From a plasmid, in sequence record AP025670.1: a DNA stretch of 64,000 bases; one strand, 5' to 3'. The translations under genes and the position numbers were made by a program. Position 1 is the first letter of the stretch. Every line of letters starts with the position of its first letter. The notes beneath the pieces were generated by a model that was not told the DNA's origin, ran no database searches, and saw only the letters and a program-made list of their open reading frames with translations. Shown piece after piece: positions 37,994-62,822 of the stretch.

Positions 37994-38336
37994 TGATTAA
38001 TGCCGCGATAAGCACCAAAGCTATTATTGCTCGTCACTTCCATTCAAATTAATTACGCCACATGTTTCAGTAAATGGGAAAGGCAAGAAAACCAACCCCC
38101 TTCTCTAAACATCACATTCTTTCAGCAAAAGGGACTTACTTAATCTGGATAAGACTGACCAAAGAATTAACGGTGCGAGAAAGTTAGCACCCGATTGCTC
38201 GCCGTTATCTTCAATTCAAAGAGAGAGAAATAAATAACAGATTGATTCCCGCCTCACTATTCGACCCCTTATTCCGCCATGAGACAATTTCATTATCTGA
38301 ACGACACGTTAATGCAATTAAACCGGAGCTAAAACC

Positions 38337-38975
38337 ATGTCCTTATCTGCAAAATATATTTACGCCACTGCCAAAGTTTCTATGTCTCACGTACTGGATC
38401 AGAACGCATTCTTCGACATCGCGTTTAACGAAAACACGGAGTACGTCTACTCGGGCATCAACAAAAGCATCATCGTGAATCTGGACGCTGCCGGGAAAGA
38501 CTGGGAAAGCATTGAGGCCAGACTGCTTAATGACGGATGGAGCACTGAGCGTTTTCCGGGGCTGCTCGGCATCTTTCAATCGCTCGTTGCCCAGCGGATC
38601 GCCTGCGTGGAGTTCCATGAACATCACCCTAAAATGCAGTGGCATAACTGGTTCACCCCGGAGACATTCATGGAAGTAAAACCCATCGGTTACGATAAGC
38701 CTCTCTTTGCCTATAAAGAACTGCCGGACGAACAGCAGAAGCAGGCCAACAAATTAATGGTAGTCGTTTCCCCTGAAACGCTAACCGACAAGGTTTTTGC
38801 GGTCGTAGGCAACGGTCGAGTCGTGAAGGTAGATGGCTTGTACGAGATGGTGCGGGAGCCGGATGAAATTAAACCCGACTATGACCGACTGATTTTTACC
38901 CCAACCAAAGAGCGGCTGGTGCTGAAAGTGAATAAAGATAAAGACACAGTTAACATCGCAATGATTATGAGCTGA
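38337..38975 (+). CDS. Hypothetical 212-aa protein, driven by a TTCGAC-N17-GACAAT promoter at 38260-38288.
   Basis: ORF track; promoter motif shared with the leading-region genes. Confidence 0.5.
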   Translation: MSLSAKYIYATAKVSMSHVLDQNAFFDIAFNENTEYVYSGINKSIIVNLDAAGKDWESIEARLLNDGWSTERFPGLLGIFQSLVAQRIACVEFHEHHPKMQWHNWFTPETFMEVKPIGYDKPLFAYKELPDEQQKQANKLMVVVSPETLTDKVFAVVGNGRVVKVDGLYEMVREPDEIKPDYDRLIFTPTKERLVLKVNKDKDTVNIAMIMS

Positions 38976-39184
38976 TAACCTGTCCCGGCTGTTTGTTGAC
39001 CGATCACACATTTTCATTTCGATACATTCCAAATGAAAACAGAGAGCAATCAGCCCAAGTTTCCGGCACCTGCACATACCGGCTCAATTCGATAAGAATG
39101 ATAACGTTGAGACAGGGACAAACTTGCTTTGTGCCTGTTGAGAGGTTGACCGAGCCGGAGAACGGCGCTGGTAAGATACCCCAC

Positions 39185-39670
39185 CTAACTGATCCGGCTG
39201 ATAGCTACGGACTGACGCAACACGGCCAGCACATCACTGACTGATATCTGCCATGCAGCTGCCTGACGTCGGATAATAAAAACGCCTAACTCAATTCGCT
39301 GATTATGACTAAGCATGTGCTGAATAGTCGTTCCCCCTTCGGAGATGATCAGCATAACGCCTTTAGCATCGTTATTGTGGACTTTCAGACCCTTGTTTTT
39401 TTTCGTACCGTGATAGCTCACATCAAGCGTTTTTTGCAGGCCAAAAAGCAACTCGCATAGCCCGGTCAGTTCATCCTTCGAGAGCTGGAGATAGATTTTG
39501 TTTGCCCAGTCTGCCGAGCTGTCGATTATTTTTGCCATCTCAACATTCACGGTCAGTTCACTGGTTTTTTCTTTTTTAGTGTACTGCACACTGAGGGCAG
39601 TACATTTGCTTGCGTCACGCTGATTATCCCCATAAAACTTAATGGCTTCTTCGAATTTATTTTCGCCCAT
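39185..39670 (-). CDS. Hypothetical 161-aa protein.
   Basis: ORF track. Confidence 0.4.
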   Translation of the reverse strand: MGENKFEEAIKFYGDNQRDASKCTALSVQYTKKEKTSELTVNVEMAKIIDSSADWANKIYLQLSKDELTGLCELLFGLQKTLDVSYHGTKKNKGLKVHNNDAKGVMLIISEGGTTIQHMLSHNQRIELGVFIIRRQAAAWQISVSDVLAVLRQSVAISRIS

Positions 39671-39819
39671 TTTCTTTACTCCTTTACCGTTTTGTGTCTA
39701 TTTTCCCACACAGACATGTCATACCGAACGCCTTTGCCGAGTGTTCTAAGCTAAATTCATGAATAATATGGGATTGCCTATTTTTTTTCGGGGCTATCTT
39801 TTGCTGGTGGATTGCGGAT

Positions 39820-39930
39820 CAAAAGGTGTCTGCTGAGGGGAAGGTATGTCATTCATTACTCCCACGGAACAGTAGAAGAGGATTTATCCTTCATTTTTCC
39901 CCGTAAAAGGTGTCCGCTGAGGGGAAACTC
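39820..39930. repeat. Two inverted-orientation iteron copies (AAAAGGTGTC[T/C]GCTGAGGGGAA) about 85 bp apart.
   Basis: Reverse complement of the CCCCTCAGCACACACC iteron with one mismatch. Confidence 0.6.
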
Positions 39931-39984
39931 GTCGGAAATACCCCGATTTTGTCCTCTTTTTTTCTGTTTGAGCATTATTTAATC

Positions 39985-40440
39985 GAATCTTCCCCCCAGC
40001 ACACACCGCAAATTTAGTTAGTCATTGATTTATATAGACTTTACTAAACAACAATATTTGAGGCAAGTCCGACGAGCAGGACGAAAAACCCCCCTGACAC
40101 ACACCATTCACGATCCGGGTAATGCACAGCGCACAGAAATGTTTAAAAAAGAAGCAAATTAGGAGGGGGATTTATCAGGAATTCCCGTCAAACCCCTTGG
40201 CACACACCGAACGAAAGCCAATTCCTTCCCCCTGACACACACTTTACCGGTGATAATTACGCCCCGTGATACTCACTCGGAGGGAAAACCACCAATTTTC
40301 CCCCTGACGCACACCTTGCCAGTGGCATTCCCCCCTGACACACACCTTGCCAGAGAGGCGATCAGTTCCCCCTGACACACACCTTTGCAATGACTGTTAA
40401 CCCCCCTGACACACACTTTTCATTGACAGCCAAACCACAG
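39985..40440. repeat. Array of eight direct iterons (consensus CCCCCTGACACACACC, period about 33-40 bp) downstream of repA.
   Basis: Repeats read directly: CCCCCCAGCACACACC, CCCCCTGACACACACC x5, CCCTTGGCACACACC, CCCCTGACGCACACC. Confidence 0.75.
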
Positions 40441-40446
40441 GCACAC

Positions 40447-41313
40447 TTATTCGTTGATTACACTTAGCTTTGGACTTCGCTTGTGAATGATGAGGTAATT
40501 CTCTTGTCCTTTTTTCACCATAGAAGCGTCCAAATAGCCGATATCTATCAGCTTAGTAATCGCTTTTTTGATGATTCGATTCTGTTCTTTAACCTGACTG
40601 ATCAGAGACAACCTTTCACGTAGGCGTTCAAAAGAGATAGGAGCCGGGTTACTTGGAAGGCTTGCAAGGAAGGTATACAGGGCTTGTGCAACTTCTAGAC
40701 GTGGAAGGGCTTTTATTGCATGTAGTTGAAGAACAACACGATAATCAAAGTAGTATAACTCCCATAATCGCTCGTCTGCTTCCAGTTCCACAACGTCTGT
40801 ATCGGCATTGAAATAGGCTATCTTTATGAGGCCGGTATGATATGCAGATTGTGAATCTTTGCCTCGCTTAAATGAGATCGATTTCCCCCTGATTTTACGA
40901 AGCGATTCATCTATATGCGCTCTCAGTTTCTTGTCCAGTTTTTTACCGGGGAAACCACAATCTTTTGCGAACTCAGAAAACTTTAGTTTGATGCGGTTTG
41001 ACGAAATCCCGTACTTGCTGAACGCTTTGACTATGCCGATCCACACCTTGAAATCAGTATCCATATCAAGACGTTCACCAGTGATTTTTATGTCAGTAAA
41101 CCCCTCAAGTCTTGCAAATTCAAAGGTAGAACTTAATTCACTGACATCAATCATCGGGCTGTAGTCAGATGACCTTGATGGTTTAGGCACAAACAGGCCA
41201 AGGCGCATAAAGGCCACTGGTTGAATTGTATTCAGTTCATTAACTGTTAATGGTTTTTGTTTTTCTTCCGTGTTACCAAATAACACATCAGATATAACTA
41301 GTTGAGTTTCCAT
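40447..41313 (-). CDS. repA: Iteron-type replication initiation protein (Rep_3 family, RepFIB-like), 288 aa.
   Basis: Flanked by iterons on both sides. Winged-helix Rep_3-like sequence; the internal Met (METQLVISDV) is chosen because upstream in-frame codons run through the iterons. Confidence 0.8.
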   Translation of the reverse strand: METQLVISDVLFGNTEEKQKPLTVNELNTIQPVAFMRLGLFVPKPSRSSDYSPMIDVSELSSTFEFARLEGFTDIKITGERLDMDTDFKVWIGIVKAFSKYGISSNRIKLKFSEFAKDCGFPGKKLDKKLRAHIDESLRKIRGKSISFKRGKDSQSAYHTGLIKIAYFNADTDVVELEADERLWELYYFDYRVVLQLHAIKALPRLEVAQALYTFLASLPSNPAPISFERLRERLSLISQVKEQNRIIKKAITKLIDIGYLDASMVKKGQENYLIIHKRSPKLSVINE

Positions 41314-41334
41314 AATAAAATAATTCCCCCCCAC

Positions 41335-41470
41335 GTAAATGCTACGATTGTGGAAAAGTATCACATTTTCCCCGTGACGCCCACCTTTTTTCCCCTCAGC
41401 ACACACCCAAATCCCCGTAACACACACTTTCTTCCCCTCAGCACACACCTTTTTCCCCTCAGCACACACC
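41335..41470. repeat. Five direct iterons upstream of repA (CCCCGTGACGCCCACC, CCCCTCAGCACACACC x3, CCCCGTAACACACAC).
   Basis: Read directly from the sequence. Confidence 0.75.
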
Positions 41471-41509
41471 GAAAAACGTTGTAAGCCTTGTGGCAGTAAG
41501 GCTACAGAC

Positions 41510-41590
41510 CACGGGGATCTTTTTGGTTTTATCTGGATCTCTCTATGGATCTATTATTGGATCTACACGGTGGATATGTGGATAACTTTA
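41510..41590. other. Putative oriV core: four GATC sites spaced about 12 bp apart (41516, 41536, 41548, 41560) and a perfect DnaA box TGTGGATAA (41577-41585).
   Basis: Motifs read from the sequence, adjacent to the iterons. Confidence 0.5.
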
Positions 41591-41692
41591 AATGATGGTA
41601 ATGTGGAGGAATATCTGACGCGCTACGCTTGTCCAACCGCTGCCGGGCAATGAAAGGTAAACCCATTCATTACCCGACAACGGTTCCCGGAA

Positions 41693-42891: not shown

Positions 42892-43254
42892 TTAGCGGTG
42901 TGCGTACTGGTTGTTCACCCTCTTTTTGTTGGTGCTTTTAGCGAGTTTCTTCCTGTATTTCACATGAGAATTTCGGGATATGCAGGTGATCAGCGTTGAT
43001 TGACATACAACAAATATAAACCAATTAGTGAAGAAATATTTTCTCTCTTCTTTGCACTCATAATACATTGACGTGACGCGCATAAACTCAGTGAGGATAA
43101 TATCCACCCCCCTCACCTCTTCGGTGAAGAGCTGCGCCTTTGATAATTCTTCCAGTAATCCATAGGTGCCACGGAAACCACGCTCTTTCCATCGTTCCTG
43201 AGCGTGCCGGGTAATGACGAGTGTATTGACATCGAGAAAGCTATTTTCGTGCAT
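42892..43254 (-). CDS. Hypothetical 120-aa protein, driven by a TTCGAC promoter module at about 43311.
   Basis: ORF track; promoter motif. Confidence 0.4.
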   Translation of the reverse strand: MHENSFLDVNTLVITRHAQERWKERGFRGTYGLLEELSKAQLFTEEVRGVDIILTEFMRVTSMYYECKEERKYFFTNWFIFVVCQSTLITCISRNSHVKYRKKLAKSTNKKRVNNQYAHR

Positions 43255-43406
43255 GAATGAACCCTCTTAACGTGTAGTAATGATTAAAAGGCTAACACCG
43301 CACGGAAAGGGGTCGAATAGGATATCGGTTAAAAAATATACAGTTAAGAGTTAAAGAAAAACCGCCGATTAAGCGGTCTTGTTTGGGTATCTTTAGGATA
43401 GGGAGT

Positions 43407-43685
43407 CTATGCCTTTTTTCGTTCTTCAATAACGAATTCAGCGGCACATACCAGCGTTTCATGAGTGATACCATAGTTAGCATCATGTGAGCTGATCGCA
43501 TGTTTCAGGGCATCACGAGCAATTTCATCACTAATCTCTTCATTGTTAAAATCTTGTACAGCAGCTTTGACATCATCGGAATGCCAGATAATTGTACCAA
43601 TCTGTTCATCTTGATTTTTGTATTGAGAAAGATGAGCGATGATTTCTTTAACTGTACCGTACATAGTGATCTCCTGATTTTTCAT
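43407..43685 (-). CDS. Hypothetical 92-aa acidic protein.
   Basis: ORF track; TTCGAC promoter module at about 43775. Confidence 0.45.
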   Translation of the reverse strand: MKNQEITMYGTVKEIIAHLSQYKNQDEQIGTIIWHSDDVKAAVQDFNNEEISDEIARDALKHAISSHDANYGITHETLVCAAEFVIEERKKA

Positions 43686-43855
43686 TTAGGACAGCGGTTG
43701 CGTTTAGCTCTGGCTGTCATTGATTGTTTGTATCAGTCTTGCTGATGTAGTTATTTTCCCACGGAGGTAAGGGCGGTCGAATAGTCAAAAGCAAAATAGT
43801 TTTATAAAAAAAAACCGCATTGGGCGGGCTTATTTTTGGTGCTGTAGGAATGTAG

Positions 43856-44368
43856 TCAGAAGGTTTTCATGACAGACCCACAGCACGGGCATATCTTGCT
43901 TTGTCCTTCCTCAGTTAATACCCTTAAAAGTATTTTTCTCAAAATCCCCCATAGGCACAGACGAACGAGAGTAATGGAGATTGCAAAGCATCCGCCGTAC
44001 CCTACCGCCGCGTTAGTGATAACAGAGTAGTATTCCTCCCCTATTACCTCTTTTGCCAGTGGCTCCGCTTTCAGGGCGTTAACAGTAACCATGTAAAAAA
44101 AGCGCAGGTGTTCGGCAAGGTACACAGCAGTAACAAAAATGATAATTGTTACCGTGGCCTGAACGAACACGAGCCGGTTAATGCCGTGGCGAAGTTCCAT
44201 TATCAGCGCCAGCATGAGCGATCCAGAAAAGGCCAACTCAAGCGGAAAGGGCTTTTGCAATCCTGAAAGGTAGATGGTCAGCTCATGAAAGAAAAGGGCG
44301 CAGCCTCCCGCGCTTAACCCCACCAGCAGAAAACCACGCCAATATGCTTTAAATGAAAAATTCTTCAT
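43856..44368 (-). CDS. Hypothetical polytopic membrane protein with a C-terminal CPCCGS motif, 170 aa.
   Basis: ORF track. Confidence 0.4.
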   Translation of the reverse strand: MKNFSFKAYWRGFLLVGLSAGGCALFFHELTIYLSGLQKPFPLELAFSGSLMLALIMELRHGINRLVFVQATVTIIIFVTAVYLAEHLRFFYMVTVNALKAEPLAKEVIGEEYYSVITNAAVGYGGCFAISITLVRLCLWGILRKILLRVLTEEGQSKICPCCGSVMKTF

Positions 44369-44378: not shown

Positions 44379-45029
44379 TCAATTGCTGAGAGAGTTAATC
44401 GTTACTTCGGGTTCATCGCCCAGTTCAATCATATTACCGAAGCCGTTCAGCAGGACAGGTCTGCCGTTCTGAATGGTGGCATGGGTTCGCCACCCTTCCC
44501 CGCCGTTCTCCCCCCAGCGGGCTAACCCCTCCGAGTCCATCTCTTGCTCACTGGCAAAGAAGGTTGCGCCGGGCAGCTTTTCAGCTGACAGATTAATGGT
44601 TGGATCAGCCAGCACACAGATACCGTTTTGCGTCATGAAGTACATGAGGCGTTCTGCCTTTTGCTCACAGCTGATAACAAAGCCGTTAGGCATGAGACGC
44701 GTTGTTTTGCTCGTGACGCAGATCAGATTATCCACCTTCTCACACCCTGCCATTAGCAGTATTTTCACATCAGCGGAAACATACACCTCGAGCAGCGCAG
44801 ACAGTACATCTGCTTGCTCAGGGATGTTGGCAGTAAGTGTTTTGGTTTTCCCGGCCACATCGGTATCGACAGAGGAATGGGTCATAATCTCTCTCAGTAC
44901 CACGCTGCCCGGCGATTCTGGGTCAATCCATGAATCGGACGGGTTAGGCCGTGACAGAGCGCTTATCCATGCTGAGGGAGCGTTACCGTCAAAAGTGAAG
45001 GTGAGGGTTGCCGTGCTATTAGAAGACAT
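44379..45029 (-). CDS. Hypothetical 216-aa protein.
   Basis: ORF track; TTCGAC-N17-GATAAT promoter at about 45129. Confidence 0.45.
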   Translation of the reverse strand: MSSNSTATLTFTFDGNAPSAWISALSRPNPSDSWIDPESPGSVVLREIMTHSSVDTDVAGKTKTLTANIPEQADVLSALLEVYVSADVKILLMAGCEKVDNLICVTSKTTRLMPNGFVISCEQKAERLMYFMTQNGICVLADPTINLSAEKLPGATFFASEQEMDSEGLARWGENGGEGWRTHATIQNGRPVLLNGFGNMIELGDEPEVTINSLSN

Positions 45030-45254
45030 AGTGATTTCCTCCAGTGTGGATGCTGCGAGCTATTACGATTAGCCTCGATATGATTACAAGGTGTTATGCG
45101 ATAAAAATTATCCCATGAGCACCATAGGGGTCGAAGATTTTGAGAGATGAAATTCGAAAGAGATTTACAGGATTTCAAGATGAAATCTAGCCTTGTTAAT
45201 CACTAAAATCAGTAACTTAAACGAAAAGTCATTACAGGATAATTAGAGATAAAA

Positions 45255-45299: not shown

Positions 45300-46286
45300 T
45301 TAACTATCTTCTTCGATGACAGACCGGATAAACGCGTCAATTTTTTCATGGGCTTCTTTGCTGATGCGACTGAACTCATACGTAAACTTTCGCGCTCTGG
45401 TATCTGATTTTTTACGCGCGTATTTACGCTTATCGTCATACTCTTTTAGCGTTTCAAAAACAGGTTTTTCTATTACCGGCTTGTTTTCCAGCGTTGAGAA
45501 ATTGCTTTCAAAAAGCTTCATAACGCGTTCTTTGTAAAGGTCTGGTTGCAGGGACTCTTTTTCTAATTCTTTTGCTGCAAGAACGACATTCGCTACGAGG
45601 GTATCTATATCAATCTTTTTTTTCTCTGCCTGAATAGAAATATTCAGAAGAATTTTATAATCAGCGAATACCAGCAACGACTGAATAGGGAAAACAGAAA
45701 CCATCTTTTCGGGAACTGTTGCAGCCTGAATGGCACGGGAAACGGCAGCGGTAGACATGTTTTGCCGTTCCGCAATATCCTTCTGCGTTATACCCTGATC
45801 ACGCATAGCGATGAGAGTCATCCCTACTTCACGGATGTTATGCTCTTTTGCTGTCTGTATCTCAGCTGCGAGCTGGCGGGCTTCTTCGGCGGTCATCTCA
45901 CTTTTAGTGTACATAACCCGGAGGCCAACACCACAAAGTAATGCAGCTGCACGACGGCGTGACCCATCAAGGATTTCAATCCGCCCTTCCACCAGCCGAC
46001 CAATGGCAGGAAAGAACTGTTGGTTTTGCAGTGTACTGGTGATGTCTGCAAGGGATTCCTGTGTCAGAGCGTTTTGGTCACGCCCGTTAATTTTGGGGTC
46101 AACGTAGGTGCGAGTTTCAACCTGCTCGGCTGTGATAGTCTCAGTTTGAAACATAACCTTTCTGCCTGATTTCAGGACAAAGCGGAGACTCTCGCCAGAG
46201 GCAGCGGATAATGGAACGTTAATCCCGGAAAGAGGTGATTCGCTAAATGTTCTTCCGAGAACTTCTCTTGGTTTTTTCTGGGTCAT
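45300..46286 (-). CDS. parB: Partition protein ParB/SopB family (centromere-binding), 328 aa.
   Basis: ParB-box-like 'GRLVEGRIEILDGSRRRAA', HTH 'ITQKDIAERQNMSTAAVSRA'. Start overlaps the parA stop. Confidence 0.8.
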   Translation of the reverse strand: MTQKKPREVLGRTFSESPLSGINVPLSAASGESLRFVLKSGRKVMFQTETITAEQVETRTYVDPKINGRDQNALTQESLADITSTLQNQQFFPAIGRLVEGRIEILDGSRRRAAALLCGVGLRVMYTKSEMTAEEARQLAAEIQTAKEHNIREVGMTLIAMRDQGITQKDIAERQNMSTAAVSRAIQAATVPEKMVSVFPIQSLLVFADYKILLNISIQAEKKKIDIDTLVANVVLAAKELEKESLQPDLYKERVMKLFESNFSTLENKPVIEKPVFETLKEYDDKRKYARKKSDTRARKFTYEFSRISKEAHEKIDAFIRSVIEEDS

Positions 46287-52823: not shown

Positions 52824-52828
52824 TACTC

Positions 52829-54511: not shown

Positions 54512-54514
54512 GAA

Positions 54515-54943: not shown

Positions 54944-55368
54944 TCCCTTATCTGCATTGTCTTTGCTGCTGATTTCCCGGCATCAGTTAGTTTAACCGGG
55001 TAGAAAGTGGTTCGGCTTTTCTCACCCTCGCAGGCGTATGCCACCAGCCCGAGACGCAAAAGCACAGGGATAGACGGTGCGGCGATGTCATTTGTTACGA
55101 ACCGGGTTCTGATACATGGCCTACACTCCAAAGCCTTTTTACCGTCCCCCCTTAGCTTGTACGACGCCCCACTGGATAGACGACGCAGCGTGTAAATTTG
55201 CGCGTTACTCAGCTGTTTCACGGATAAGCCTCTGGATTTCTTTTTTAGCCAGCTGGCGAGCACGATGCTTGTCTGCACGCATGACATCACCGTAGGCATT
55301 GCCTTTTCGGTATCCGCGACGACGGCACTTATGACAGGTACAGCCATTAACAGAATAGGATTGACCAA
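54940..55368 (-). CDS. Uncertain ORF with a TTG start. A different frame from an ATG near 55373 encodes a 57-aa basic Cys-rich peptide (MEPFGQSYSVNGCTCHKCRRRGYRKGNAYGD...) with a GGGGG RBS.
   Basis: ORF track plus manual reading of the overlapping frame. Confidence 0.25.
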   Translation of the reverse strand: MVNPILLMAVPVISAVVADTEKAMPTVMSCVQTSIVLASWLKKKSRGLSVKQLSNAQIYTLRRLSSGASYKLRGDGKKALECRPCIRTRFVTNDIAAPSIPVLLRLGLVAYACEGEKSRTTFYPVKLTDAGKSAAKTMQIRD

Positions 55369-55442
55369 ATGGTTCCATGTTTACCCCCCGATTAACATGA
55401 CAGGCTGGTGGAGCGGTTCAGGCCACCAGCCATAGGACTGTT

Positions 55443-55961
55443 TTAGTCCTGATTGAAATTATGTTGCAGCCCGTAAGTTTCCCGCAGGAATTGAAGTTGC
55501 GCTTCCAGATCATTAATGCGCTTTTGTTGCACGTTCCACGCCAACCCGACGTTGGTACACACATCCGGGTCTTTAGCGTGGCAATGCGGGCAATGTATGC
55601 CGTATTCATCACTGACTTGGTTTCCTTCATAGGATTCATAGCTGGGATACACGGCAAGGCAGCTGGGGCACTCAACGATATGGGCCTCTCCCTTATAATC
55701 ATCAGACACATAGCGATGTAAAAACCCTGCATTGGTATTGCGCTTCTCAAAATCGTTTTGCGTATCGCTTTCAGATTTAGACTTAGCTTCTCCTTCTCCG
55801 GGCTTGAATGCTTTCCTCAGTACCTGCAACGGAGGAAGGACAGCCGCAGAGTCAGAGTTATCTTCATCGTTATCAAAAATGATATCGGTGCCCTGATCAA
55901 CGTTAGCGTTTAGCCAGTCGATCATCACATCCAGCGCTTGTAATGGGGTTAATGCAGACAT
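55443..55961 (-). CDS. Hypothetical 172-aa acidic protein with CxxC..CxxC (zinc-ribbon-like).
   Basis: ORF track; promoter module (TTCGGC) at about 56017. Confidence 0.45.
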   Translation of the reverse strand: MSALTPLQALDVMIDWLNANVDQGTDIIFDNDEDNSDSAAVLPPLQVLRKAFKPGEGEAKSKSESDTQNDFEKRNTNAGFLHRYVSDDYKGEAHIVECPSCLAVYPSYESYEGNQVSDEYGIHCPHCHAKDPDVCTNVGLAWNVQQKRINDLEAQLQFLRETYGLQHNFNQD

Positions 55962-56054
55962 CTTTTGCCTCTCAATTCGTCGTTTAATAAAACTATTAAA
56001 ACATCCGTTCCGGGGAGGCCGAAGTCATCCGGGGGTAAAAAATCTCACACAGGG

Positions 56055-56609
56055 TCATTTATTTTTCATTCGCCAGAACAGGGCCGCGAGGCAACGAAGG
56101 TTGTCGTGTTGCCTTGTCAGCTTCTTGGCGTAACGACGATGGTGGGGAGCGCTTTGCTGGATAAGCCCGCTCTCAATGAGCCGGATGATGAGGCGGCATT
56201 TCCATACAGAATGTATCGCGTTGGTAATGATGGCCATCCCTGATACGACCACTAGCACAAGGCCCGAAAGTTCCGGGTACACAGGGCACACCACCGCATA
56301 GACGAAAAACAGTTTTAGGTTCGTCACTCCAGCAGAGTACAGTACCACCGCAGGCTCACTGACCGACGCGCTGAGCGCGTGACTGTCTGCATTCAATATC
56401 TGTCTTAACGTCAGAAGTACCGAAGGGATCACGCAGAAGAGCATTAGGCCCGCGCCTGTAAAAATGAGAGCAATAGATTGCCCGAGGAATCCATTCATGA
56501 TTAACCCATACATAACGTCAAATTCGCTGCATACAGAGTTAACACAGGGTAGGGCAAGGTCGAAGTATCTGGCTGGTGGGTGAGGCCGTACCGGGCGATA
56601 CAGCCTCAT
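56055..56609 (-). CDS. Hypothetical polytopic membrane protein, 184 aa.
   Basis: ORF track; hydrophobicity. Confidence 0.4.
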   Translation of the reverse strand: MRLYRPVRPHPPARYFDLALPCVNSVCSEFDVMYGLIMNGFLGQSIALIFTGAGLMLFCVIPSVLLTLRQILNADSHALSASVSEPAVVLYSAGVTNLKLFFVYAVVCPVYPELSGLVLVVVSGMAIITNAIHSVWKCRLIIRLIESGLIQQSAPHHRRYAKKLTRQHDNLRCLAALFWRMKNK

Positions 56610-56620
56610 TTAAAGGGGTA

Positions 56621-56950
56621 CTACGACTGGTCTGCGATTTCCTCAGCCAATTCGGTTGCCGCGATCAGGGCATCTTCAAGGTTATTGGTGTTATCAGAGA
56701 TAACGTCCCAGCCGCTATTGCCGTAAACGAGATGTACCCAGCCTACATGCTTACCATCACTGTCGTAGGCGTAAAGAAACTCTTCATCAGTAGAGAACAT
56801 TGCTTCCATGATGCTGCTAACGTTGTCTGTTACCTCCGTTACCAGTTCTTCACCGTCATAAACGGCGATACCGAATCCGGCATCCACCAGCCCCTGAGCC
56901 GCAGTTTCTACAATCCGGCGTTCAACAATTTGTTTTTCCTGAATATCCAT
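56621..56950 (-). CDS. Small highly acidic protein, 109 aa. Possible DNA-mimic or anti-restriction-like role (speculative).
   Basis: ORF track; D/E-rich composition. Confidence 0.4.
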   Translation of the reverse strand: MDIQEKQIVERRIVETAAQGLVDAGFGIAVYDGEELVTEVTDNVSSIMEAMFSTDEEFLYAYDSDGKHVGWVHLVYGNSGWDVISDNTNNLEDALIAATELAEEIADQS

Positions 56951-57051
56951 TGCTGCATCCTTTGATGTCAGTTAGTGAGTCGGTGAAACTTTTTACGCGA
57001 TGACAAATCCCCCCTACCTGTTAGGCAGTAAGGGGGGGAGGGGATAGGGAT

Positions 57052-58119
57052 TCAAGCCGCTCCTGTTTCGGTGGCTGTGTTATCTTCGCCAGCATCAGCA
57101 TCAGCATCAGTATCTGTTTTCTGATTTGCTTCATACTGCTCAAGGATAGCCAGCAGCATTCGGGCAGCATCAGCCGGGATATTAATGCTCACATCATCCG
57201 GGTCTTTCGTGTCTTCCGTTTTCACACGTTCGATCTGCAAACGGATTTGATTGCTGGCTGGCAGCAGAGAGGTGAAGGTTTCACGGATAGCCTTTGGTTT
57301 CACGGTGACTTTTTTAGACTTCACAAAACGCGCCGTAACCTTGTCCTTACCTGCTTTCTTCGCTTCACCCAGAGAGGCCATCAGCTCTTCGTAAACGTTA
57401 CGCTCAGTGCCCTTGCACTCCACCAGCAGGTTGATAGCGACGTCAGCAGAAACTTTGTCCTCGCGAACCAACTCCTTAACGTTTTCCTCTGCCTCAACCA
57501 GAATTAGAGAGCGGCGAACGGTCTGGATGTTATTACCTGAGCCCGCCGCTATTTCTTCAATGGAGAGATTCCAGCCACGAAGACGACGGAAACCTTCTGC
57601 ACGTTCGATAGGTTTCAGAGCCAGTCCCTGAGCGCTCTTGAGCATCTCAAACACTTCACCGGCAGAGTTACCTGTGTATTCTTCAATCGGCAGTGAAGCA
57701 ATCTTCGCACCAGCTTGAATCGCAGCCATCAGGCCAGCAAAACGGTGGTGCCCGTCAATGATCTTGAGTCGCGTCACGCCATTAAGAATAACGGCTTTAA
57801 CCAAGATTGGTGGGATTCGATCCCCACGCATCCACATCCCTTTGAACATTTCCACCTGCTCAAGATTGAGGTTGCGCAGGTTAAAACCGACTTCAACATA
57901 CAGCCATGCAGGAGAAACGTTGTACCCGTTGTTACGTCCCACACTGGCCTCATCAAACAGAACGGTAGAATTTTCCTTTTTCACTTTCGCCAACAAATCG
58001 CTGATCTGACGAAGTGAAGTAGGTTTTTTTTCCATTTCCGCCATTTTTACTGCCAGCTCACCCAAAGCTGAGTTGTCCTGAGATTTAACAAAAATTTCCT
58101 GTACGTTGATGTCGCTCAT
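57052..58119 (-). CDS. ParB-like nuclease domain protein (ParB/Srx N-terminal domain with 'IIDGHHRFAG'), typical of leading regions.
   Basis: Motif in the translation; acidic C-terminal tail. Confidence 0.65.
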   Translation of the reverse strand: MSDINVQEIFVKSQDNSALGELAVKMAEMEKKPTSLRQISDLLAKVKKENSTVLFDEASVGRNNGYNVSPAWLYVEVGFNLRNLNLEQVEMFKGMWMRGDRIPPILVKAVILNGVTRLKIIDGHHRFAGLMAAIQAGAKIASLPIEEYTGNSAGEVFEMLKSAQGLALKPIERAEGFRRLRGWNLSIEEIAAGSGNNIQTVRRSLILVEAEENVKELVREDKVSADVAINLLVECKGTERNVYEELMASLGEAKKAGKDKVTARFVKSKKVTVKPKAIRETFTSLLPASNQIRLQIERVKTEDTKDPDDVSINIPADAARMLLAILEQYEANQKTDTDADADAGEDNTATETGAA

Positions 58120-58394
58120 TGTCTTGCCTCCGATGCGGTTAAAAAATGTTTTGTGTGTGTTGCTGTAGTTCTAGTAAACCACGCTGCCGACAGAGGTCGA
58201 ATAGCAAAACTGAAAAAAAACGTTTTTTATTCACTTTTTTTTCAATCCCAGAAGCGACGGGCTCAACAGGCAGATTTGATGAAGAAAAAGCGAAAATGGC
58301 GATAAAAAAAAGACCGCTATCAAAAAAGAAAGCGATCTCAATGAATAAAAACTGTTTTTCTAACCCCGCAACAATGACACGCTGGGGATACACT

Positions 58395-58685
58395 TTACTT
58401 TTCTTTCTGCATCATAACGGCAAGTTGTCGCACTACAGCACGCAGGGCCGCATCATCAGCGATCACCGGGGGAAGGCCAGCCACAATACTGTCAGAGGCG
58501 TAGATGTTGCCGTGCCACTCAAGCTGGTGGCCTGACACCTGATAGCTGAATAGCCACTCGCTTTCCTCTTCAAGTTCCCAGAAGCACAGCAATGTCCCAT
58601 CATCATGCCCGATGCCTTCGGAAAAGGTCAGATCGATACCCCGGCTTTTTGCCATATTGTGAGTCGTTTTGCTGATAGTGAACAT
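58395..58685 (-). CDS. Hypothetical 96-aa protein.
   Basis: ORF track; TTCGAC-N16-GATAAT promoter at about 58741. Confidence 0.4.
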   Translation of the reverse strand: MFTISKTTHNMAKSRGIDLTFSEGIGHDDGTLLCFWELEEESEWLFSYQVSGHQLEWHGNIYASDSIVAGLPPVIADDAALRAVVRQLAVMMQKEK

Positions 58686-58874
58686 GCTTTACCCCGTACT
58701 GTGAGCTACTGTTTGATAAAACAATTATCTCACGCTTTCGGGAGTGTCGAAGTCTAAGGAAAACCATCAAGATGAGGGGGAGGGAGTGGGGTAGATACCG
58801 AGGGGGCGAACATAAAGTGATGTACGCCCTTTGAGTATTATGCGTATTCTAACAGCTTCAATAACACTTTTTCG

Positions 58875-59189
58875 TTAAGCGCCCATAGAACGTTCATAGG
58901 CTTGTTCTCTTCTCAGTTCATTTTCAATACGCGCATCTCTACGCAGTTCCACAAGCTTACGTTTCTCCGCAAAGTTCATACGGGACACGTCCGGCAGTTT
59001 AACCGACCCACGGCCTTTACAGACGCTACAAGTGACATCAAACCGACCATCCATGTAGTTCTGACGGTCTTCAAGATCCCATTCGTTCCACTCGCTTGCC
59101 GTAATGCCATTAGCAAACGCCTCATGGCCCGTTTTGCCTTCGCCATCGCAGTTACCGCAGATAGCCCAATAGTAGTGAGAAAACTCCAT
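58875..59189 (-). CDS. Hypothetical Cys-rich 104-aa protein (CGNCDGEGK..CSVCKGRG; DnaJ-like CxxCxGxG pair).
   Basis: ORF track; motif reading. Confidence 0.45.
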   Translation of the reverse strand: MEFSHYYWAICGNCDGEGKTGHEAFANGITASEWNEWDLEDRQNYMDGRFDVTCSVCKGRGSVKLPDVSRMNFAEKRKLVELRRDARIENELRREQAYERSMGA

Positions 59190-59496
59190 ACAACCCCCAT
59201 AGAAACGTTATCTGAGCAATACCTTTACTTTGGCACGTATGTCTGCCAGTTCGTTTACACTGACCGTGGACGTCATGGTGGATTCGACAACCCCACCAGC
59301 AGGGAAACTATTCTATGACTATTCAGAGGAAGGCCGAAGCCCGGTAATACCTACAATAAGGTAAATATCCACGGATCTGAATACTGTAAGTTAAGGCAAA
59401 GGTGCGCTGAATAGCAAAGAGGGAGTATTCAATACCCCAGAGTCAGGGGAAGAAGCACCGCCAATTGAGGGCCAGACAGGATAAAGAGGAAGTCGG

Positions 59497-60012
59497 TTAT
59501 TCTAATCCCTGCGAGTACAGCTGATATCTGCATTCACGTTTGAAGTGCTCAGGCTCACCGAGATAAATAAACCATGCACGGCTTATCTTTAGTTCACTGG
59601 CTACGCTGATAGCGTCATCCAGTCTTTGTATCGCAAAAGCCACGCCGCGATTTTTGAACTCATCAGCACACGCTAAGAGACTGTCTTTGTCGAAATATAT
59701 TGTCTCGTCTATACCCACTGGGCCAGCAGGCACATATTCGGTACTGAACATAGCGGGCATTTCCCAGTCCTGAGCAACCATCAGCTCTCGTGCATCGGTC
59801 ACGCGTCCGGGAAGGGCACTGTTCAGCATGAGTGATTTACCCACCCCCGGCTGTCCAACCAGAAACACCGGGATACCCATTCGCACAGAAAACCGGATAG
59901 CGATATCTAGCAAGCGACGTTTCAGCGCCATCTTGTTGCTGAACTGCTTGTAATTTACCCGTGGCATGTTCACCACATGGAATTTCGCATCTTTCACACA
60001 AATTGTACGCAT
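59497..60012 (-). CDS. P-loop NTPase-like protein (GQPGVGKS), about 171 aa.
   Basis: Walker A motif. The internal ATG (MRTICVKD) is preferred over the long alternative-start ORF. Confidence 0.45.
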   Translation of the reverse strand: MRTICVKDAKFHVVNMPRVNYKQFSNKMALKRRLLDIAIRFSVRMGIPVFLVGQPGVGKSLMLNSALPGRVTDARELMVAQDWEMPAMFSTEYVPAGPVGIDETIYFDKDSLLACADEFKNRGVAFAIQRLDDAISVASELKISRAWFIYLGEPEHFKRECRYQLYSQGLE

Positions 60013-60291
60013 CGCAAAACACCCCTCTGACAGTATCGCCCGCCACCGTTCTCGTGGGCCGCATGGTAAAACGAGATATTTTACCTTAATGAGAACCCTA
60101 ACGACAGACATCCAGCCCTTATCACTGTTTACCAACACACTACCGATGCACGGTAAGTGCGGTATGTACGACTGACGCGCTACGCTTGTCCAACCGCTGC
60201 CGGGCAATGAAAGATGATTCCATTCATTACCCGTCAACGGTTCCCTAATTACCCCTCAATCAACCCGCGCATACCCGCAACGTAAGCTTTT

Positions 60292-61014
60292 TCAGCCTTG
60301 ATCAGTTTCATCAGTCACCTTCTGATTAAGTCCCAGAACGGCATCAGCCAGTACCCGTGGGTCTGCACCGCGCTGGTGGAGCATCATGGCAAAAACGGCA
60401 ATGTCTTCAAACGTACCCGCGTTACCTTTCAGCAAATGAGCCACCAGCTGCTCTGCCAGCAGCGTATCACTGCAATGCGTCCGGGACTCCCAGCCACCGC
60501 GCCCCTTAGCCCGTGACTTTGCCAGCTTCGCCTTACATGCCATAGCAAACGCATCAAAACAGATATCATCGCTATGCTGTACCCGGCGAGTAACACCATC
60601 AGAAGTTACTGTGTCACTTTTTGAATTCGAGATAATCGTTAGCAAACGCGAGATAACCGCAGAAGAACGGGCCGCATATTCAGAAACCGAGACATCAGTA
60701 CCGGTGTCCATGCCATCGAGCTCAAAACGCAGGTCGATTGTGTCACAGTCAATGTCACCATGATCGAGACTGCCTATCTGTTCCAAAACAAACAGGCATT
60801 GTCGGGCTTCATTCAGACACGCCAAATCAAGGGCTGGTGGAGGGGCATAAGCTGTCTTTACCAGAATGCGCTTTTCCCACTTCTCCGGGTCATGCAGGGG
60901 AGTATGAAACTCCGCCTCGCTCACCTCGACCCATTCAGCCTGTTCTTTAGAGCCATCAAGAAGGCGCACCTGAAAAACAGCACCAGCCACAGACTCAATT
61001 TTTTGTTCAGTCAT
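60292..61014 (-). CDS. Hypothetical 240-aa protein.
   Basis: ORF track. Confidence 0.45.
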   Translation of the reverse strand: MTEQKIESVAGAVFQVRLLDGSKEQAEWVEVSEAEFHTPLHDPEKWEKRILVKTAYAPPPALDLACLNEARQCLFVLEQIGSLDHGDIDCDTIDLRFELDGMDTGTDVSVSEYAARSSAVISRLLTIISNSKSDTVTSDGVTRRVQHSDDICFDAFAMACKAKLAKSRAKGRGGWESRTHCSDTLLAEQLVAHLLKGNAGTFEDIAVFAMMLHQRGADPRVLADAVLGLNQKVTDETDQG

Positions 61015-61031
61015 ATCCCCCCCGGATAAAA

Positions 61032-61469
61032 CTATTTTTCAGTGGTGATCGCTATAACGAAAGGTACATCGGGCGTGCCTTTAGTTTCTGAGTTCTCAAT
61101 GACAAACCCAGTTTCCCACACGCCATTTGCGCCGTATTCGCGCTCACTGCTCTCGTCTTCCGGCAGCACCTTAAAAACGCCCCGCGCCAGCTCTTCCTGT
61201 TCCTCAGTAAGAGCAACGTAGCAGTTGTTCTCATGGATACATAAGCTGCCATCTGCATGACGCAGGATTACCATGTCTGATCCGAACTGACCGACCTTAC
61301 GACGCACCTGCACACAGAACCCCACCCGGTTACTTACTGGCAAGCTGTTTGGCCCGGTAATGACAAACTGCCCAAAAGCTGGATGAGATGACGTGCGTAT
61401 CATCCGGCTCCAGTCCATATTCGCGCCAATACTGGTAAGAATGTTCACAGCATCCTCGTTATCCATCAT
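61032..61469 (-). CDS. Hypothetical 145-aa protein.
   Basis: ORF track. Confidence 0.45.
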   Translation of the reverse strand: MMDNEDAVNILTSIGANMDWSRMIRTSSHPAFGQFVITGPNSLPVSNRVGFCVQVRRKVGQFGSDMVILRHADGSLCIHENNCYVALTEEQEELARGVFKVLPEDESSEREYGANGVWETGFVIENSETKGTPDVPFVIAITTEK

Positions 61470-61702
61470 TCTGATTTCCCCCCCATTTTATATCTTAGTC
61501 ACTGCCAAAAGCATCGTAGTAGGCGACGTCTACAGGCGTACCTGCATTGTAGGTATCTTCCCAGCCGCTACTTTCACCCACGCTGTCACCGTTAAGCTCA
61601 GCAATCAGGCTCAGCTGCTCAAACCATTCCTCAAAAGAGCTCGTGGCTTTTGTCGATGCAAAATCAGCCATATACTTTCTCTCTCGTTTTGTTGGGCCAG
61701 TG

Positions 61703-62623
61703 TCAGACAGACACCAGCGTTTTCACTTCTTCTTTCCCGAAAGCCTTGCACGTCAGCTCAGCTGATTCGCCAGCAAGAGCCGGGGCTTTCCATTTGATGA
61801 ACACGGTATTACCACGCGTTAAGATCTCAGCACCTTCCAGTTTGCATTCCGGTGCCTTAGTTTCACCACTGCGGGTAGCCTTTACCGTAAAGACCCATGC
61901 CACACCAGCGGTCAGGTTTTTCGGCATGTCATAGCGAAACTCTACTGGTGGGCTATCACTGGCCTGTACATCAGAAATATCAACTCCGGCTGATTTCAGC
62001 TCGTTCAGGGCCACTTCCCGGCTTTCACCCACACTTTCCTGCTCATGGATTTGCTGCTGGATCCACGCTTTATCACTTGAGGACAGAGATGAGGCATGAC
62101 TATTACTGCTGCTCAACATCCAGTACATCATCGCGAGCGTTGTCCAGTCAGTACCGCTACGCTTGCGCTCATCAATTATGGAGCTCACTTTCTCAGGTGG
62201 GGCTTTTGTCCCGATGTACGAAGCACTTCGCCCCGACGTACCGGAAAACTTTTGAGAAGAATTATCTCGGGCTGAAAATGCGGCCGGATTTTCTTTTGTG
62301 CCAATTTTGCCTTTGTTCTCCACCAGCTTCGCGCCACTGATGCTTTTCTTCGCCACCGGACTGCTTGCGGCTGAGGGCTCATTCTTTACGCCGCTTCCCG
62401 TCGCTGTAGATTCGGCACTGGTTTTATTGCTGCTGCTGGCGTTGTTTTTGCTGCTGGAGCTGCTGCTGGGCGAGGATGAAGGTTTGCTATAGCTGGATGA
62501 CGATTTGTAGGATGAACGATACGAACTCTTGTAGCTGGATTTATAGCCAGCCTCCACTGAGAAGGATAGAGCCAATAACAAACTGAAAAGACCGATCACC
62601 ATTTTGCTGATTTTGCCGTACAT
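61703..62623 (-). CDS. Secreted protein with a signal peptide followed by (S-S-Y-K/R) repeats and a poly-Ser low-complexity region, then a globular C-terminal domain; 306 aa.
   Basis: Signal 'MVIGLFSLLLALSFSVEA'; 'GYKSSYKSSYRSSYKSSSSYSKPSSSPSSSSSS'. Confidence 0.5.
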   Translation of the reverse strand: MYGKISKMVIGLFSLLLALSFSVEAGYKSSYKSSYRSSYKSSSSYSKPSSSPSSSSSSKNNASSSNKTSAESTATGSGVKNEPSAASSPVAKKSISGAKLVENKGKIGTKENPAAFSARDNSSQKFSGTSGRSASYIGTKAPPEKVSSIIDERKRSGTDWTTLAMMYWMLSSSNSHASSLSSSDKAWIQQQIHEQESVGESREVALNELKSAGVDISDVQASDSPPVEFRYDMPKNLTAGVAWVFTVKATRSGETKAPECKLEGAEILTRGNTVFIKWKAPALAGESAELTCKAFGKEEVKTLVSV

Positions 62624-62822
62624 GATTTCTCTCTCATTTCGTGGGCGCTGGTGCCCGTTAGTCTATGCAATGATTAAAACGCTAACACCCGGTGGCACCA
62701 TGTCGAATAGCATAATAAACAATTATTTTCGCAGCGCAGGCCACAGAAACAGGGGGGGGAAGGTAACAGAAACCCGCGCTGGTGGCGGGTAGATGGATGG
62801 CTGCATAACTGCATAATACGGC

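Follow-up and report, generated by a model that had tools for sequence, protein, structure and literature searches.

The DNA analyzed here (AP025670.1), a 64,000-nt stretch of a plasmid referred to as the window, consists of IncT backbone (Rts1) and accessory DNA. Between 42 and 64 kb, 21 intergenic gaps are 50 nt or longer, and 15 of these contain a short promoter-like motif, which we call the TTCG box. Its sites there are in gene orientation, with the start codon 22 to 120 nt 3' of the end of the -10 hexamer. The window holds 16 such modules, namely, the 13 listed in an earlier sequence-only reading and further copies at 48305, 56564 and 63254, the last one degenerate; its 38 kb of accessory DNA gave no box match. 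The modules are given below as box, spacer length, extended -10 (in parentheses) and -10 hexamer.

38257-38288, plus strand: predicted promoter upstream of ORF 38337-38975; CTA-TTCGAC-N17-(ATGA)-GACAAT; 30.5 bits.
43289-43320, minus strand: predicted promoter upstream of ORF 42892-43254; CTA-TTCGAC-N17-(GTGT)-TAGCCT; sub-class with TTTAATCATT extension.
43753-43784, minus strand: predicted promoter upstream of ORF 43407-43685; CTA-TTCGAC-N17-(GTGG)-GAAAAT.
45107-45138, minus strand: predicted promoter upstream of ORFs 44379-45029 and 43856-44368; TTCGAC-N17-(ATGG)-GATAAT; directly downstream of a P1-type parS-like site.
48278-48308, minus strand: predicted promoter upstream of ORF 47884-48207 (the added 48305 copy); TTCGGC-N16-(GTGA)-TAAAAT; TGATAAAAT.
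50481-50512, minus strand: predicted promoter upstream of the operon 50169-50447, 49661-50176 and psiA (48939-49661); CTA-TTCGAC-N17-(GTGA)-GATAAT; best matrix match.
50983-51014, minus strand: predicted promoter upstream of ORF 50522-50947; TTCGAC-N17-(ATGA)-GATAAT.
51743-51774, minus strand: predicted promoter upstream of ORF 51045-51704; TTCGAC-N17-(ATGC)-CATAAT.
53242-53273, minus strand: predicted promoter upstream of the operon 52829-53206, 52530-52823 and 52128-52493; TTCGGC-N17-(ATGT)-TAGCCT; preceded by a second parS-like site.
55995-56026, minus strand: predicted promoter upstream of ORF 55443-55961 and downstream genes; TTCGGC-N17-(ATGT)-TTTAAT.
56536-56567, minus strand: weak member (the added 56564 copy) upstream of ORF 56055-56513; TTCGAC-N17-(GTGT)-TAACTC, a weak -10; only 13.9 bits.
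58173-58204, minus strand: predicted promoter upstream of the ParB/KorB-like gene 57052-58119; TTTTGCTA-TTCGAC-N17-(GTGG)-TTTACT; A6-N-T8 tract directly upstream.
58724-58754, minus strand: predicted promoter upstream of ORF 58395-58685; TTCGAC-N16-(GTGA)-GATAAT.
59310-59341, minus strand: predicted promoter upstream of ORF 58875-59189; TTCGGC-N17-(GTCA)-TAGAAT; no TG extension; 120-nt leader.
62679-62710, minus strand: predicted promoter upstream of the operon 61703-62623 and following genes; CTA-TTCGAC-N17-(GTGT)-TAGCGT.
63226-63257, minus strand: degenerate member (the added 63254 copy) upstream of ORF 62823-63212; TTCGAG-N17-(ATGC)-TATCTT; the ortholog in pECTOK-001_1 has a canonical CTATTCGGCC box.

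All 13 copies listed earlier were recovered, 12 of them at the positions given and the one assigned to 58735 about 11 nt away, with GTCGAA at 58746-58751. The sub-family extension was also found, as GTGTTAGCCTTTTAATCATT, at 43279-43324, 53232-53277 and 62669-62714. Calling the copies near-identical was nevertheless an overstatement, as only about 12 + 10 nt are conserved. Each copy has an A/T tract on its 5' side, followed by the box, (c)TA-TTCG(A/G)C-C(cc) (IncT form cTATTCGACCcc), a spacer, and RTGn, an extended -10 directly before the -10 hexamer nAnAAT. The spacer between box and hexamer is usually 17 and sometimes 16 nt long and variable in sequence, and the G+C-rich block ascribed to it is not conserved. 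Neither is the CCCCC tract invariant, C being found at +6 in 26/29, at +7 in 17/29, at +8 in 19/29 and at +9 in 15/29 of the Rts1 sites.

In the information profile of these 29 sites, the box extends from -3 to +9, the A/T tract lies ∼15 to 20 nt upstream, and G/A-T-G precedes a -10 hexamer in which A2 and T6 are nearly invariant. The box contains ∼16 bits and TTCG occurs in 29/29 sites, both values being inflated since the matrix itself selected the sites. Nearly half of the -10 hexamers begin with G rather than T. A generic scanner read four copies as TCGACC-16-GATAAT, and these were its only sigma70-like matches with a TG extension. No dyad symmetry or second half-site was seen in the TTCG core, which has only 6 to 7 conserved bp, and nowhere in Rts1 do two boxes form an inverted pair. 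The layout supports the earlier proposal that the copies are promoter modules, and it is from this layout that we infer promoter activity.

We then scanned the 217-kb Rts1 with the matrix trained on the window copies (threshold, ≥18 bits) and obtained 30 sites, versus 0.2 in shuffles. About 15 of these fall outside the matrix-building sequences, at 70 to 128 kb, 188 kb and 191 kb, with ssb and dinG among their genes. The bare 10-mer GGGGGTCGAA with one mismatch was only weakly above chance (8 versus 3.3). Family members occupy both strands all round the plasmid. The motif is thus not special to the region beside oriT, and the description of these promoters as leading-region elements is not supported. 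The genes behind them include most non-transfer backbone operons, among them psiA and its neighbors, the ParB/KorB-like gene, ssb, dinG and an operon with the ParM-like, Orf249 and setDC genes, as well as many genes without assigned function. No TTCG box was found at the tra operons of Rts1, which share another motif, CAAAACG(T/A)CCnnTTTTT; the plasmid therefore has at least two promoter classes. Judged by its sequence features, the motif is a real marker of ∼30 putative promoters, apparently ordinary double-stranded ones, over the whole IncT (Rts1-type) backbone.

Comparison of ten orthologous promoter pairs between the window and the diverged plasmid pECTOK-001_1 showed that TTCG was kept at 100% (40/40 positions), RTG at 93% and the -10 hexamer at 88%, versus 32% for upstream, 39% for spacer and 42% for downstream sequences, indicating selection rather than shared descent. 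The pECTOK type box is cTATTCGGCC, and TTCGGCC occurs there at 19 sites (3.8 expected). Extending the proposed motif search to other relatives revealed variant boxes, TTCGTCA(C/G)C, in two more distant lineages: TTCGTCAGCGG in pPROV046 and a Morganella contig, and TTCGTCACCTG in pRHBSTW and a Kluyvera contig, where 41 kb contain at least 13 sites in gene orientation. Four plasmid lineages have a box-type promoter before the ParB/KorB-like gene. The box was absent from IncC and from other elements with a more distant ParB-like homolog. Such lineage-specific variants point to a co-evolving reader.

The conservation of the modules goes beyond the usual demand of sigma70, as had been noted earlier; with TTCG invariant, a dedicated reader is a reasonable assumption. 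No homolog of a sigma factor, one of the two readers suggested at that time, was found in Rts1. We tentatively favor, at slightly below an even chance, extended -10 promoters of the sigma70 type in which the -35 box is recognized by a factor of the plasmid lineage, probably a repressor. With its sigma70, host RNA polymerase would transcribe from the modules as ordinary double-stranded promoters, with the UP-like A/T-rich tract, RTGn and nAnAAT as the presumed sigma70 elements. TTCG-N-C, non-canonical at the -35 position, would be the docking site of a backbone-encoded factor co-regulating the whole set of ∼30 promoters. This factor would most likely be a repressor sitting on the -35 region, so that in a naive cell the promoters of the entering plasmid would fire with host polymerase alone and later be turned down, a scheme modelled on KorA/KorB in IncP and ArdK/CUP in IncN. 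We infer repression rather than activation here, although the sequence fits either. Almost no array protein has a Pfam, NCBIfam or PHROG function, and our search for the regulator among them yielded no candidate. The short core without dyad, too, counts against a factor, being short by the standards of classical repressor operators.

Some of the conservation could reflect plain sigma70 recognition, since sigma70 region 4 reads T-35, G-33 and C-31 directly, as seen in the structure of region 4 with -35 DNA, and the core read with a 16-nt spacer, TCGNCN, keeps these positions of TTGACA. It is rather doubtful that the promoters are simply constitutive, with no dedicated factor, TCGACC or TCGTCA serving as a moderate -35 (3 to 4 of 6 matches) in a form inherited from one ancestral promoter and kept suboptimal because the UP-like tract and extended -10 already provide strength. 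The scanner reading and the failure to find a sigma homolog, palindrome or regulator would fit this. However, extended -10 promoters require no -35, yet TTCG is strictly kept while adjoining bases are randomized. The C-for-T "defect" persists in over 60 sites from lineages with just 45 to 60% identity between their backbone proteins, whereas mere tuning would spread defects over different positions. Box flanks are moreover uniform within a lineage and different between lineages, and gene conversion would need more than 12 bp. It is unlikely, too, that a plasmid protein at the box replaces or remodels the contacts of sigma70 region 4 in a MotA/AsiA- or class II-like manner, an arrangement that would provide the plasmid with a -35 code of its own and a timed program of expression. 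The rigid distance to the -10, the short, asymmetric and stringently conserved box at the place of the -35 hexamer, the sigma70-type -10 and TGn, the frequent G at the start of the hexamer and the lineage-specific variants are all consistent with such an activator. But TGn with TAAAAT or GATAAT should function without one, and a naive recipient can be expected to require psiA and its neighbors, ssb and the ParB-like gene immediately, ahead of any plasmid activator. No candidate was found, and the SetCD-like activator of the plasmid appears to use the other box, at the tra operons.

The earlier suggestion of Frpo-like single-stranded promoters, folded on the transferred strand and driving early leading-region expression, is highly improbable. 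Like Frpo/ssi of F, the array lies near oriT (and mobI) beside psi-type and ParB-like genes typical of leading regions, and its genes share a uniform orientation. However, the motif-bearing gaps (74 to 423 nt), several of which (74, 93 and 97 nt) are too short for a hairpin pairing both -35 and -10, folded at only -0.06 to -0.15 kcal/mol/nt, most z values lying between +0.8 and -2 (median near -1). Control gaps of the F leading region, including one upstream of ssb where Frpo is reported, reached -0.23 to -0.27 kcal/mol/nt by the same folding, with z between -5.6 and -7.3. The motif-bearing gaps contained no long inverted repeats, their spacer hairpins were at chance level, and no sequence similarity to the F leading region was detected. 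Furthermore, array genes point away from oriT and F leading genes toward it; thus, either the coding strand is the transferred strand or the region enters last. The weak folding, the lack of inverted repeats and the opposite gene orientation contradict an Frpo-like function, as does the distribution of the family over both strands and the whole plasmid.

Several known systems resemble the modules in part. In IncN (pKM101/R46), the plasmid-encoded repressor ArdK binds CUP elements via a ∼13-nt consensus, a known case of a plasmid repressor that binds repeated promoter-operator modules, and here, too, a promoter-containing element recurs before several genes for establishment and maintenance on a single plasmid. 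CUP elements are reportedly a small number of longer repeats found only in the leading region, unlike the TTCG family with its ∼12 + 10 shared nt and ∼30 copies; the TTCG core also lies exactly at the -35 position, and its ArdK-like reader is hypothetical. IncP plasmids (RK2/RP4) likewise have one operator at a fixed place in many backbone promoters, a placement that gives coordinated negative control by KorA/KorB, and a ParB/KorB-like protein is encoded here as well. KorA and KorB operators, unlike the TTCG box, are palindromes (12 to 13 bp). Rts1 shares the MOBH12 conjugation family with the SetCD/AcaCD elements (SXT/R391, IncA/C) and encodes FlhDC-like SetC/SetD homologs. Poor -35 regions adjoin SetCD boxes, too. 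SetCD boxes, however, are 19-bp class II activator boxes directly upstream of the -35 at transfer genes, unlike the TTCG box, which is missing from the tra operons of Rts1 and from IncC and present in a plasmid typed non-mobilizable. By analogy, the modules may also be likened to T4 middle promoters, where a short, asymmetric MotA box takes the place of the -35 and keeps a constant distance to a -10 of the sigma70 type, often with TGn; the two boxes are unrelated in sequence, and we found, and know of, no MotA or AsiA homolog here. The strictly conserved TTCGNC at the -35 position points to an undescribed, plasmid-wide set of genes that would be co-regulated.

All 13 copies of the promoter/operator-like module that a sequence-only reading had listed are present in the window, 12 of them exactly where they had been placed; the copy assigned to 58735 exists as well, though its position was off, with GTCGAA lying at 58746-58751. 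When all occurrences of TTCG(A/G)C in the window were listed, two extra copies came to light, at 48305 and 56564, and a degenerate copy, TTCGAG at 63254, was found by reading the sequence. In gene orientation the consensus is (c)TA-TTCG(A/G)C-C(cc), followed by a spacer, (G/A)TG-n and a -10 hexamer of the GATAAT, TAAAAT, TAGCCT or TTTACT type. The TTCGNC element, which occupies the -35 position and is referred to here as the box, is separated from the hexamer by 17 nt (16 in three window copies). Between 42 and 64 kb there are 21 intergenic gaps that measure 50 nt or more, and 15 of these carry a copy.

The bare 10-mer was barely enriched (8 occurrences versus 3.3 by chance). A two-block weight matrix was built from the 13 window copies (box block and extended -10 block, spacer ±1) and used to scan the complete sequence of Rts1, the IncT prototype plasmid. 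This motif search across a full plasmid, which the sequence-only reading had proposed, bore out the family: 30 sites reached at least 18 bits, compared to 0.2 in shuffled sequences, and at 14 bits the numbers were 36 and 2.1. About 15 strong sites lie outside the training region, among them Rts1 70882, 71422, 73178, 74016, 83056 (upstream of ssb), 88858 (upstream of dinG), 92760, 96448, 96952, 100538, 111972(-), 127875(-), 188314(-) and 191513. When sites of at least 16 bits were compared with the Rts1 gene tables, all but 3 of 32 were directly upstream of an annotated gene of the same orientation; the Rts1 sites 18861, 72541 and 140974 are intragenic and were removed from the set. Neither matrix matches above noise nor TTCG-box promoters were present in the window's 38 kb of accessory DNA, and no matrix site was found in front of the tra operons in the Rts1 scan. 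Given the matrix excess, the placement upstream of genes, the spread round Rts1 and the absence from accessory DNA, we conclude that the element is real and belongs to the whole IncT backbone, not to the oriT-proximal array of minus-strand genes at 42-64 kb.

Over window positions 50000-59500 there is 100% identity both to Rts1, a Proteus vulgaris plasmid, and to some dozen plasmids of Providencia. By k-mer matching, 38001-41600 and 41651-64000 are collinear with Rts1 and correspond to its RepA/iteron region and to the last 22 kb of its record. In Rts1, the array extends about 6 kb beyond the window end, up to mobI. The experimentally defined oriT has mobI (orf252) on one side and a ParM-like gene (orf251) on the other, and all array genes are oriented away from oriT/mobI. 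Positions 1-38000 of the window are accessory DNA with IS26 copies, which are among the features at 13351-14150, 22761-24450, 26531-30954, 33201-33950 and 35420-36151. Accessory open reading frames have the lengths of blaTEM-1 and of a sucrose porin/PTS/hydrolase cluster in the annotation of a related plasmid, a match by length only, and a second, diverged psiA homolog is also found there.

Several families of direct repeats of 17-26 nt (CCCCCTGACACACACC, CCCTCAGCACACACC) at 39990-41475 flank and overlap a Rep3-family initiator gene (40447-41469) and are presumed to be the iterons of the IncT replicon. A 74-nt repeat is present at 41615-41688 and 60172-60245 (93% identity), one copy adjoining the RepA iterons, and two copies are found in Rts1. 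It forms a 20-bp hairpin, with G-T/G-U pairs in the stem, on the minus (gene-sense) strand only (z = -4.1/-5.2, versus -1.9/-2.1 for the plus strand). A search of Rfam with this repeat gave no match; possible roles are a small RNA, a terminator or a signal for single-strand initiation (priming).

We derived an information profile from 29 Rts1 sites that had been picked by the matrix, so that box conservation in it is partly circular; the comparison of orthologous promoters described below is independent of the matrix. In this profile TTCG and the C two bases on are invariant, the base between them is A at 21/29 sites, and the next base is C at 26/29. Weaker signals came from the CTA preceding the box and the CC succeeding it (0.65-0.9 bit each), which contradicts the earlier claim of an invariant CCCCC, and from an A/T tract that precedes the box by 15-20 nt, each of its positions contributing about 0.6 bit. 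The TG of sigma70 extended -10 promoters is found at -15/-14, a single base before the hexamer (T at 27/29 sites and G at 26/29), as are A2 (27/29) and T6 (29/29) of the hexamer. At all window sites the hexamer ends 22-120 nt before the start codon, as befits a promoter, and terminator-like hairpins end several of the upstream units. A generic sigma70 scanner read four copies as TCGACC-16-GATAAT, and these were the sole TG-extended promoter-like matches in 20 kb; canonical sigma70-like matches were otherwise no more frequent than in shuffles. Sub-classes could be distinguished by GTGAGATAAT, by GTGTTAGCCTTTTAATCATT (seen already in the sequence-only reading and confirmed here) and by TAAAAT. 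Upstream of the ParB/KorB-like gene, the A/T tract takes the form A6-8 N3-5 T7-8 in all four plasmid lineages compared, and it looks like an UP element. Many spacers appear palindromic (CCCCTTTAGGGG, CCGTTATCAACGG), but their mean folding energy was -0.95, compared to -1.12 in shuffles, and 247 of 300 permutations were at least as good, so spacer hairpins were rejected.

Individual promoters showed additional features. The RefSeq start codon of the gene at 52829-53251 is the ATG of the extended -10 region of its own promoter; this start is probably wrong, the true one being the ATG at about 53206, which has a good Shine-Dalgarno sequence and is preceded by GGGGGGAG. Directly after the -10 of the 51011 promoter lies TGTTGTAAC (50973-50981, minus strand), the putative core of a Tus-binding Ter site; Rts1 codes for two Tus-like proteins. 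At the best-scoring box promoter (Rts1 191513, at about 25640-25670 of the Rts1 stretch L001, and 2553 of the comparison stretch L012), the -10 and the start are overlapped by GATAATT-N5-7-ATTATC, a dyad of 19-21 bp that is conserved. According to our own count, its version in the diverged relative pECTOK fits the Fur-box consensus at 15/19 positions, and the dyad may be a second, promoter-specific operator.

Conservation was assessed in pECTOK-001_1, a 219-kb Escherichia coli plasmid with a MOBH relaxase, which has the gene order of the window and encodes proteins that are mostly 40-85% identical. Its orthologous gaps contain the same kind of promoter, mostly with TTCGGCC (19 pattern matches versus 3.8 expected). 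Ten orthologous promoter pairs were compared without gaps after anchoring on TTCG.

Identity between the window and pECTOK-001_1 in ten orthologous promoter pairs
TTCG: 100% (40/40)
RTG of the extended -10: 93%
-10 hexamer: 88%
C of TTCG-N-C: 80%
CTA: 57%
Positions +6 to +9: 50%
Downstream 32 nt: 42%
Spacer: 39%
Upstream 37 nt: 32%

Conservation falls exactly on the promoter elements, with everything between them randomised, which is the mark of purifying selection on function and not of recent duplication. Architecture, position, orientation and this orthologous footprint on promoter elements together strongly support the identification of the elements as promoters.

More distant relatives were located via the ParB/KorB-like protein. 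The box variant was TATTCGTCAGCGG in pPROV046-PER and a Morganella contig, and cTTCGTCACCTG in pRHBSTW-00302_2 and a Kluyvera contig; for the latter variant, 41 kb contained at least 13 sites in gene orientation, and many of these lack the TG extension. The pattern was absent where the ParB-like protein is only 30-37% identical (IncC, pJPM35-1 and Proteus/Providencia/Erwinia contigs). An exact-pattern scan of 596 Gb of species-representative genomes gave 0 matches, a result that says nothing about breadth. TTCG-N-C is constant between lineages, whereas the next three to five bases are uniform within a lineage and different between lineages. A stretch of 12 bp is presumably below the length that gene conversion could homogenise, and the simplest account of the lineage-uniform flanks would thus be co-evolution of the box with a trans-acting reader.

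The sequence-only reading had also suggested that the elements might be Frpo-like single-stranded-DNA promoters; an Frpo is described upstream of the ssb gene of F. This reading was rejected on folding, repeats, sequence similarity and gene orientation. Folded as DNA on both strands, the 15 motif-bearing gaps (74-423 nt) gave -0.06 to -0.15 kcal/mol/nt, weak folding that does not fit the long imperfect hairpin with base-paired -35 and -10 expected of an Frpo. Most z values were between +0.8 and -2, and the most negative (-4.5) belonged to a gap that also contains a terminator and a parS-like site. Gaps of the F leading region (413-479 nt, including those upstream of ssb and of the antirestriction gene), used as a positive control, gave -0.23 to -0.27 kcal/mol/nt with z values of -5.6 to -7.3. 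At 74, 93 and 97 nt, three of the window gaps could not accommodate a 30-nt promoter together with a complementary arm. No long inverted repeats were found, a blastn comparison of 15.5 kb of the F leading region with the window returned trivial 19-38 nt matches only, and an Rfam search for Frpo/ssi homology gave no family. Gene orientation speaks independently against this reading: an Frpo requires that the transferred strand be the template, that the element enter early and that the genes point toward oriT, as the F leading genes do, whereas the window array is oriented the opposite way. If the array entered first, the transferred strand would be the coding strand, and if that strand were the template, the array would enter last; early single-strand transcription is thus excluded, and we consider Frpo-like promoters highly improbable. 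The label "leading-region" that had been attached to these genes is not established, given that box promoters occur across the whole backbone.

Several plasmid proteins were considered as the putative factor that recognises the box. The SetCD-like activator (Orf246/247) was rejected because the box lies on the -35 itself and the tra promoters have a different motif. In SXT, the SetCD box is a 19-bp sequence immediately upstream of the -35 at transfer-gene promoters, unlike the TTCG box. In a Gibbs search of 17 upstream sequences of the tra region, four promoters were found to carry CAAAACG(T/A)CCnnTTTTT, a motif that no window promoter has. These copies, upstream of tra-region operons at Rts1 136540, 146611, 152114 and 159611(-), are probably sites of the SetCD-like activator; a hairpin-forming look-alike is present at 52075-52101 (minus strand), within the 423-nt gap that precedes the 51771 promoter. 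A plasmid typed as non-mobilizable carries a TTCGTCA-type box as well.

In P1, the parS site has a Box B hexamer adjoining inverted Box A heptamers. Two P1-type parS-like sites with the layout ATTTCAT-N2-TGAAAT-CCTGTA-A-ATTTCAC are present on the minus strand (45150-45205 and 53290-53332), one directly downstream of the P1-family parA-parB genes (46283-47575 and 45300-46286) and the other 8 kb off. Their Box B position is occupied by CCTGTA, not TCGACC, and recognition of the box by the P1-type ParB (45300-46286) via Box B was therefore rejected. Each site is immediately upstream of a TTCG-box promoter, so that ParB binding could silence these two promoters. A KorB/ParB-type operator, a palindrome of 13-16 bp, was also rejected, as the box has no dyad and no inverted box pair was found in Rts1 or in the comparison stretches L006 and L012.

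Orf249, the "SetR" of a 2024 study of Rts1, was described there as a SetR-like negative regulator of conjugation whose deletion raises transfer 400-fold. A box promoter precedes its operon (ParM-like gene, orf249, slt, setD, setC) in Rts1 as well as in pECTOK, and the operon leader contains about 12 TGAATGA repeats (28900-29110 of L001, about 5 kb past the window end in Rts1; 5690-5790 of L012). The protein is encoded after the ParM-like gene and has, by eye, an RHH-like N-terminus and a long, disordered low-complexity tail. Given these features and the leader repeats, Orf249 looks like a ParR binding a parC-like array, and the repeats are more likely its target than the box; loss of a ParR-type autorepressor would explain the reported rise in transfer. 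Its homologs are restricted to IncT and pECTOK-type plasmids and are missing from the TTCGTCA lineages, which also argued against Orf249 as the reader.

An alternative sigma factor was not detected: phmmer searches with RpoD, RpoE and FliA segments against all six-frame open reading frames of Rts1 gave no match below E = 2. Almost all box-driven genes lacked functional annotation in Pfam, NCBIfam, PHROGs and PDB sequences. The small basic proteins under box promoters gave no family or PDB signal, and single-sequence AlphaFold models of two such basic proteins were unusable (pLDDT of 44 for 47884-48207 and of 31 for 54940-55347). Among array proteins, Pfam assigned helix-turn-helix domains to ParA, ParB, the ParB-like protein and HigA only. 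The ParB/KorB-like gene is the sole gene with a box-type promoter in all four lineages, and this makes its product a candidate reader and nothing more.

How the box works can be read in several ways, of which repression by a plasmid protein acting on the box promoters is the one we favour, tentatively and with somewhat less than even confidence. The promoters look self-sufficient, with an UP-like tract, a TGn and a good -10, and a plasmid entering a new host would be expected to need the genes they drive straight away. Broad regulons of other plasmids are run by repression, as with KorA/KorB and with CUP, where the plasmid repressor ArdK binds repeated promoter-containing upstream elements; in IncT the repeated promoter elements are present and a repressor of them is putative. 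Plain sigma70 promoters are a rather unlikely explanation: with a 16-nt spacer the core TCGNCN retains the T, G and C of TTGACA, but this leaves unexplained why, in over 60 sites, the second-position C and the T before it are always the same, and it does not account for the lineage-specific flanks.

Activation or sigma appropriation, which we regard as slightly less likely again, would suit the rigid spacing and the short, asymmetric and stringent box, but fits the biology of establishment genes more poorly than repression does. In its fullest form, similarly doubtful, IncT-like plasmids would own a "-35 code": a backbone protein would recognise TTCG-N-C at a rigid 17 nt from a sigma70-type extended -10 and recruit or remodel host RNA polymerase by a MotA/AsiA-like or class II mechanism, with a specificity co-evolved in at least three lineages (ACC/GCC, TCAGCGG and TCACCTG). 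If so, about 100 kb of backbone genes would follow an orthogonal, timed transcription programme.

Full-text literature searches, with the 2002 Rts1 genome paper outside their reach, returned no description of the motif or of IncT promoter organisation, and the 2024 Rts1 study is limited to tra genes. In kind, the elements are a family of repeated promoter-operator units comparable to CUP or to the Kor operators; their form is new, with an invariant non-canonical -35 hexamer, about 30 copies round the plasmid and lineage-specific variants.

In Providencia, Proteus, Klebsiella and E. coli, IncT and related large MOBH plasmids are vehicles of resistance genes, including those for carbapenemases, and their backbone genes are mostly without known function or regulation. 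One promoter class before about 30 operons defines the operon structure of this backbone and predicts a regulon that is testable by a few reporter fusions, and the box sequence can serve as bait for fishing out the regulator. Whichever reading holds, repeated elements beside oriT are not all Frpo. If the box is an activator site, it would represent a rare plasmid-specific -35 code; if it is an operator, plasmid establishment and fitness cost could be influenced through its repressor.
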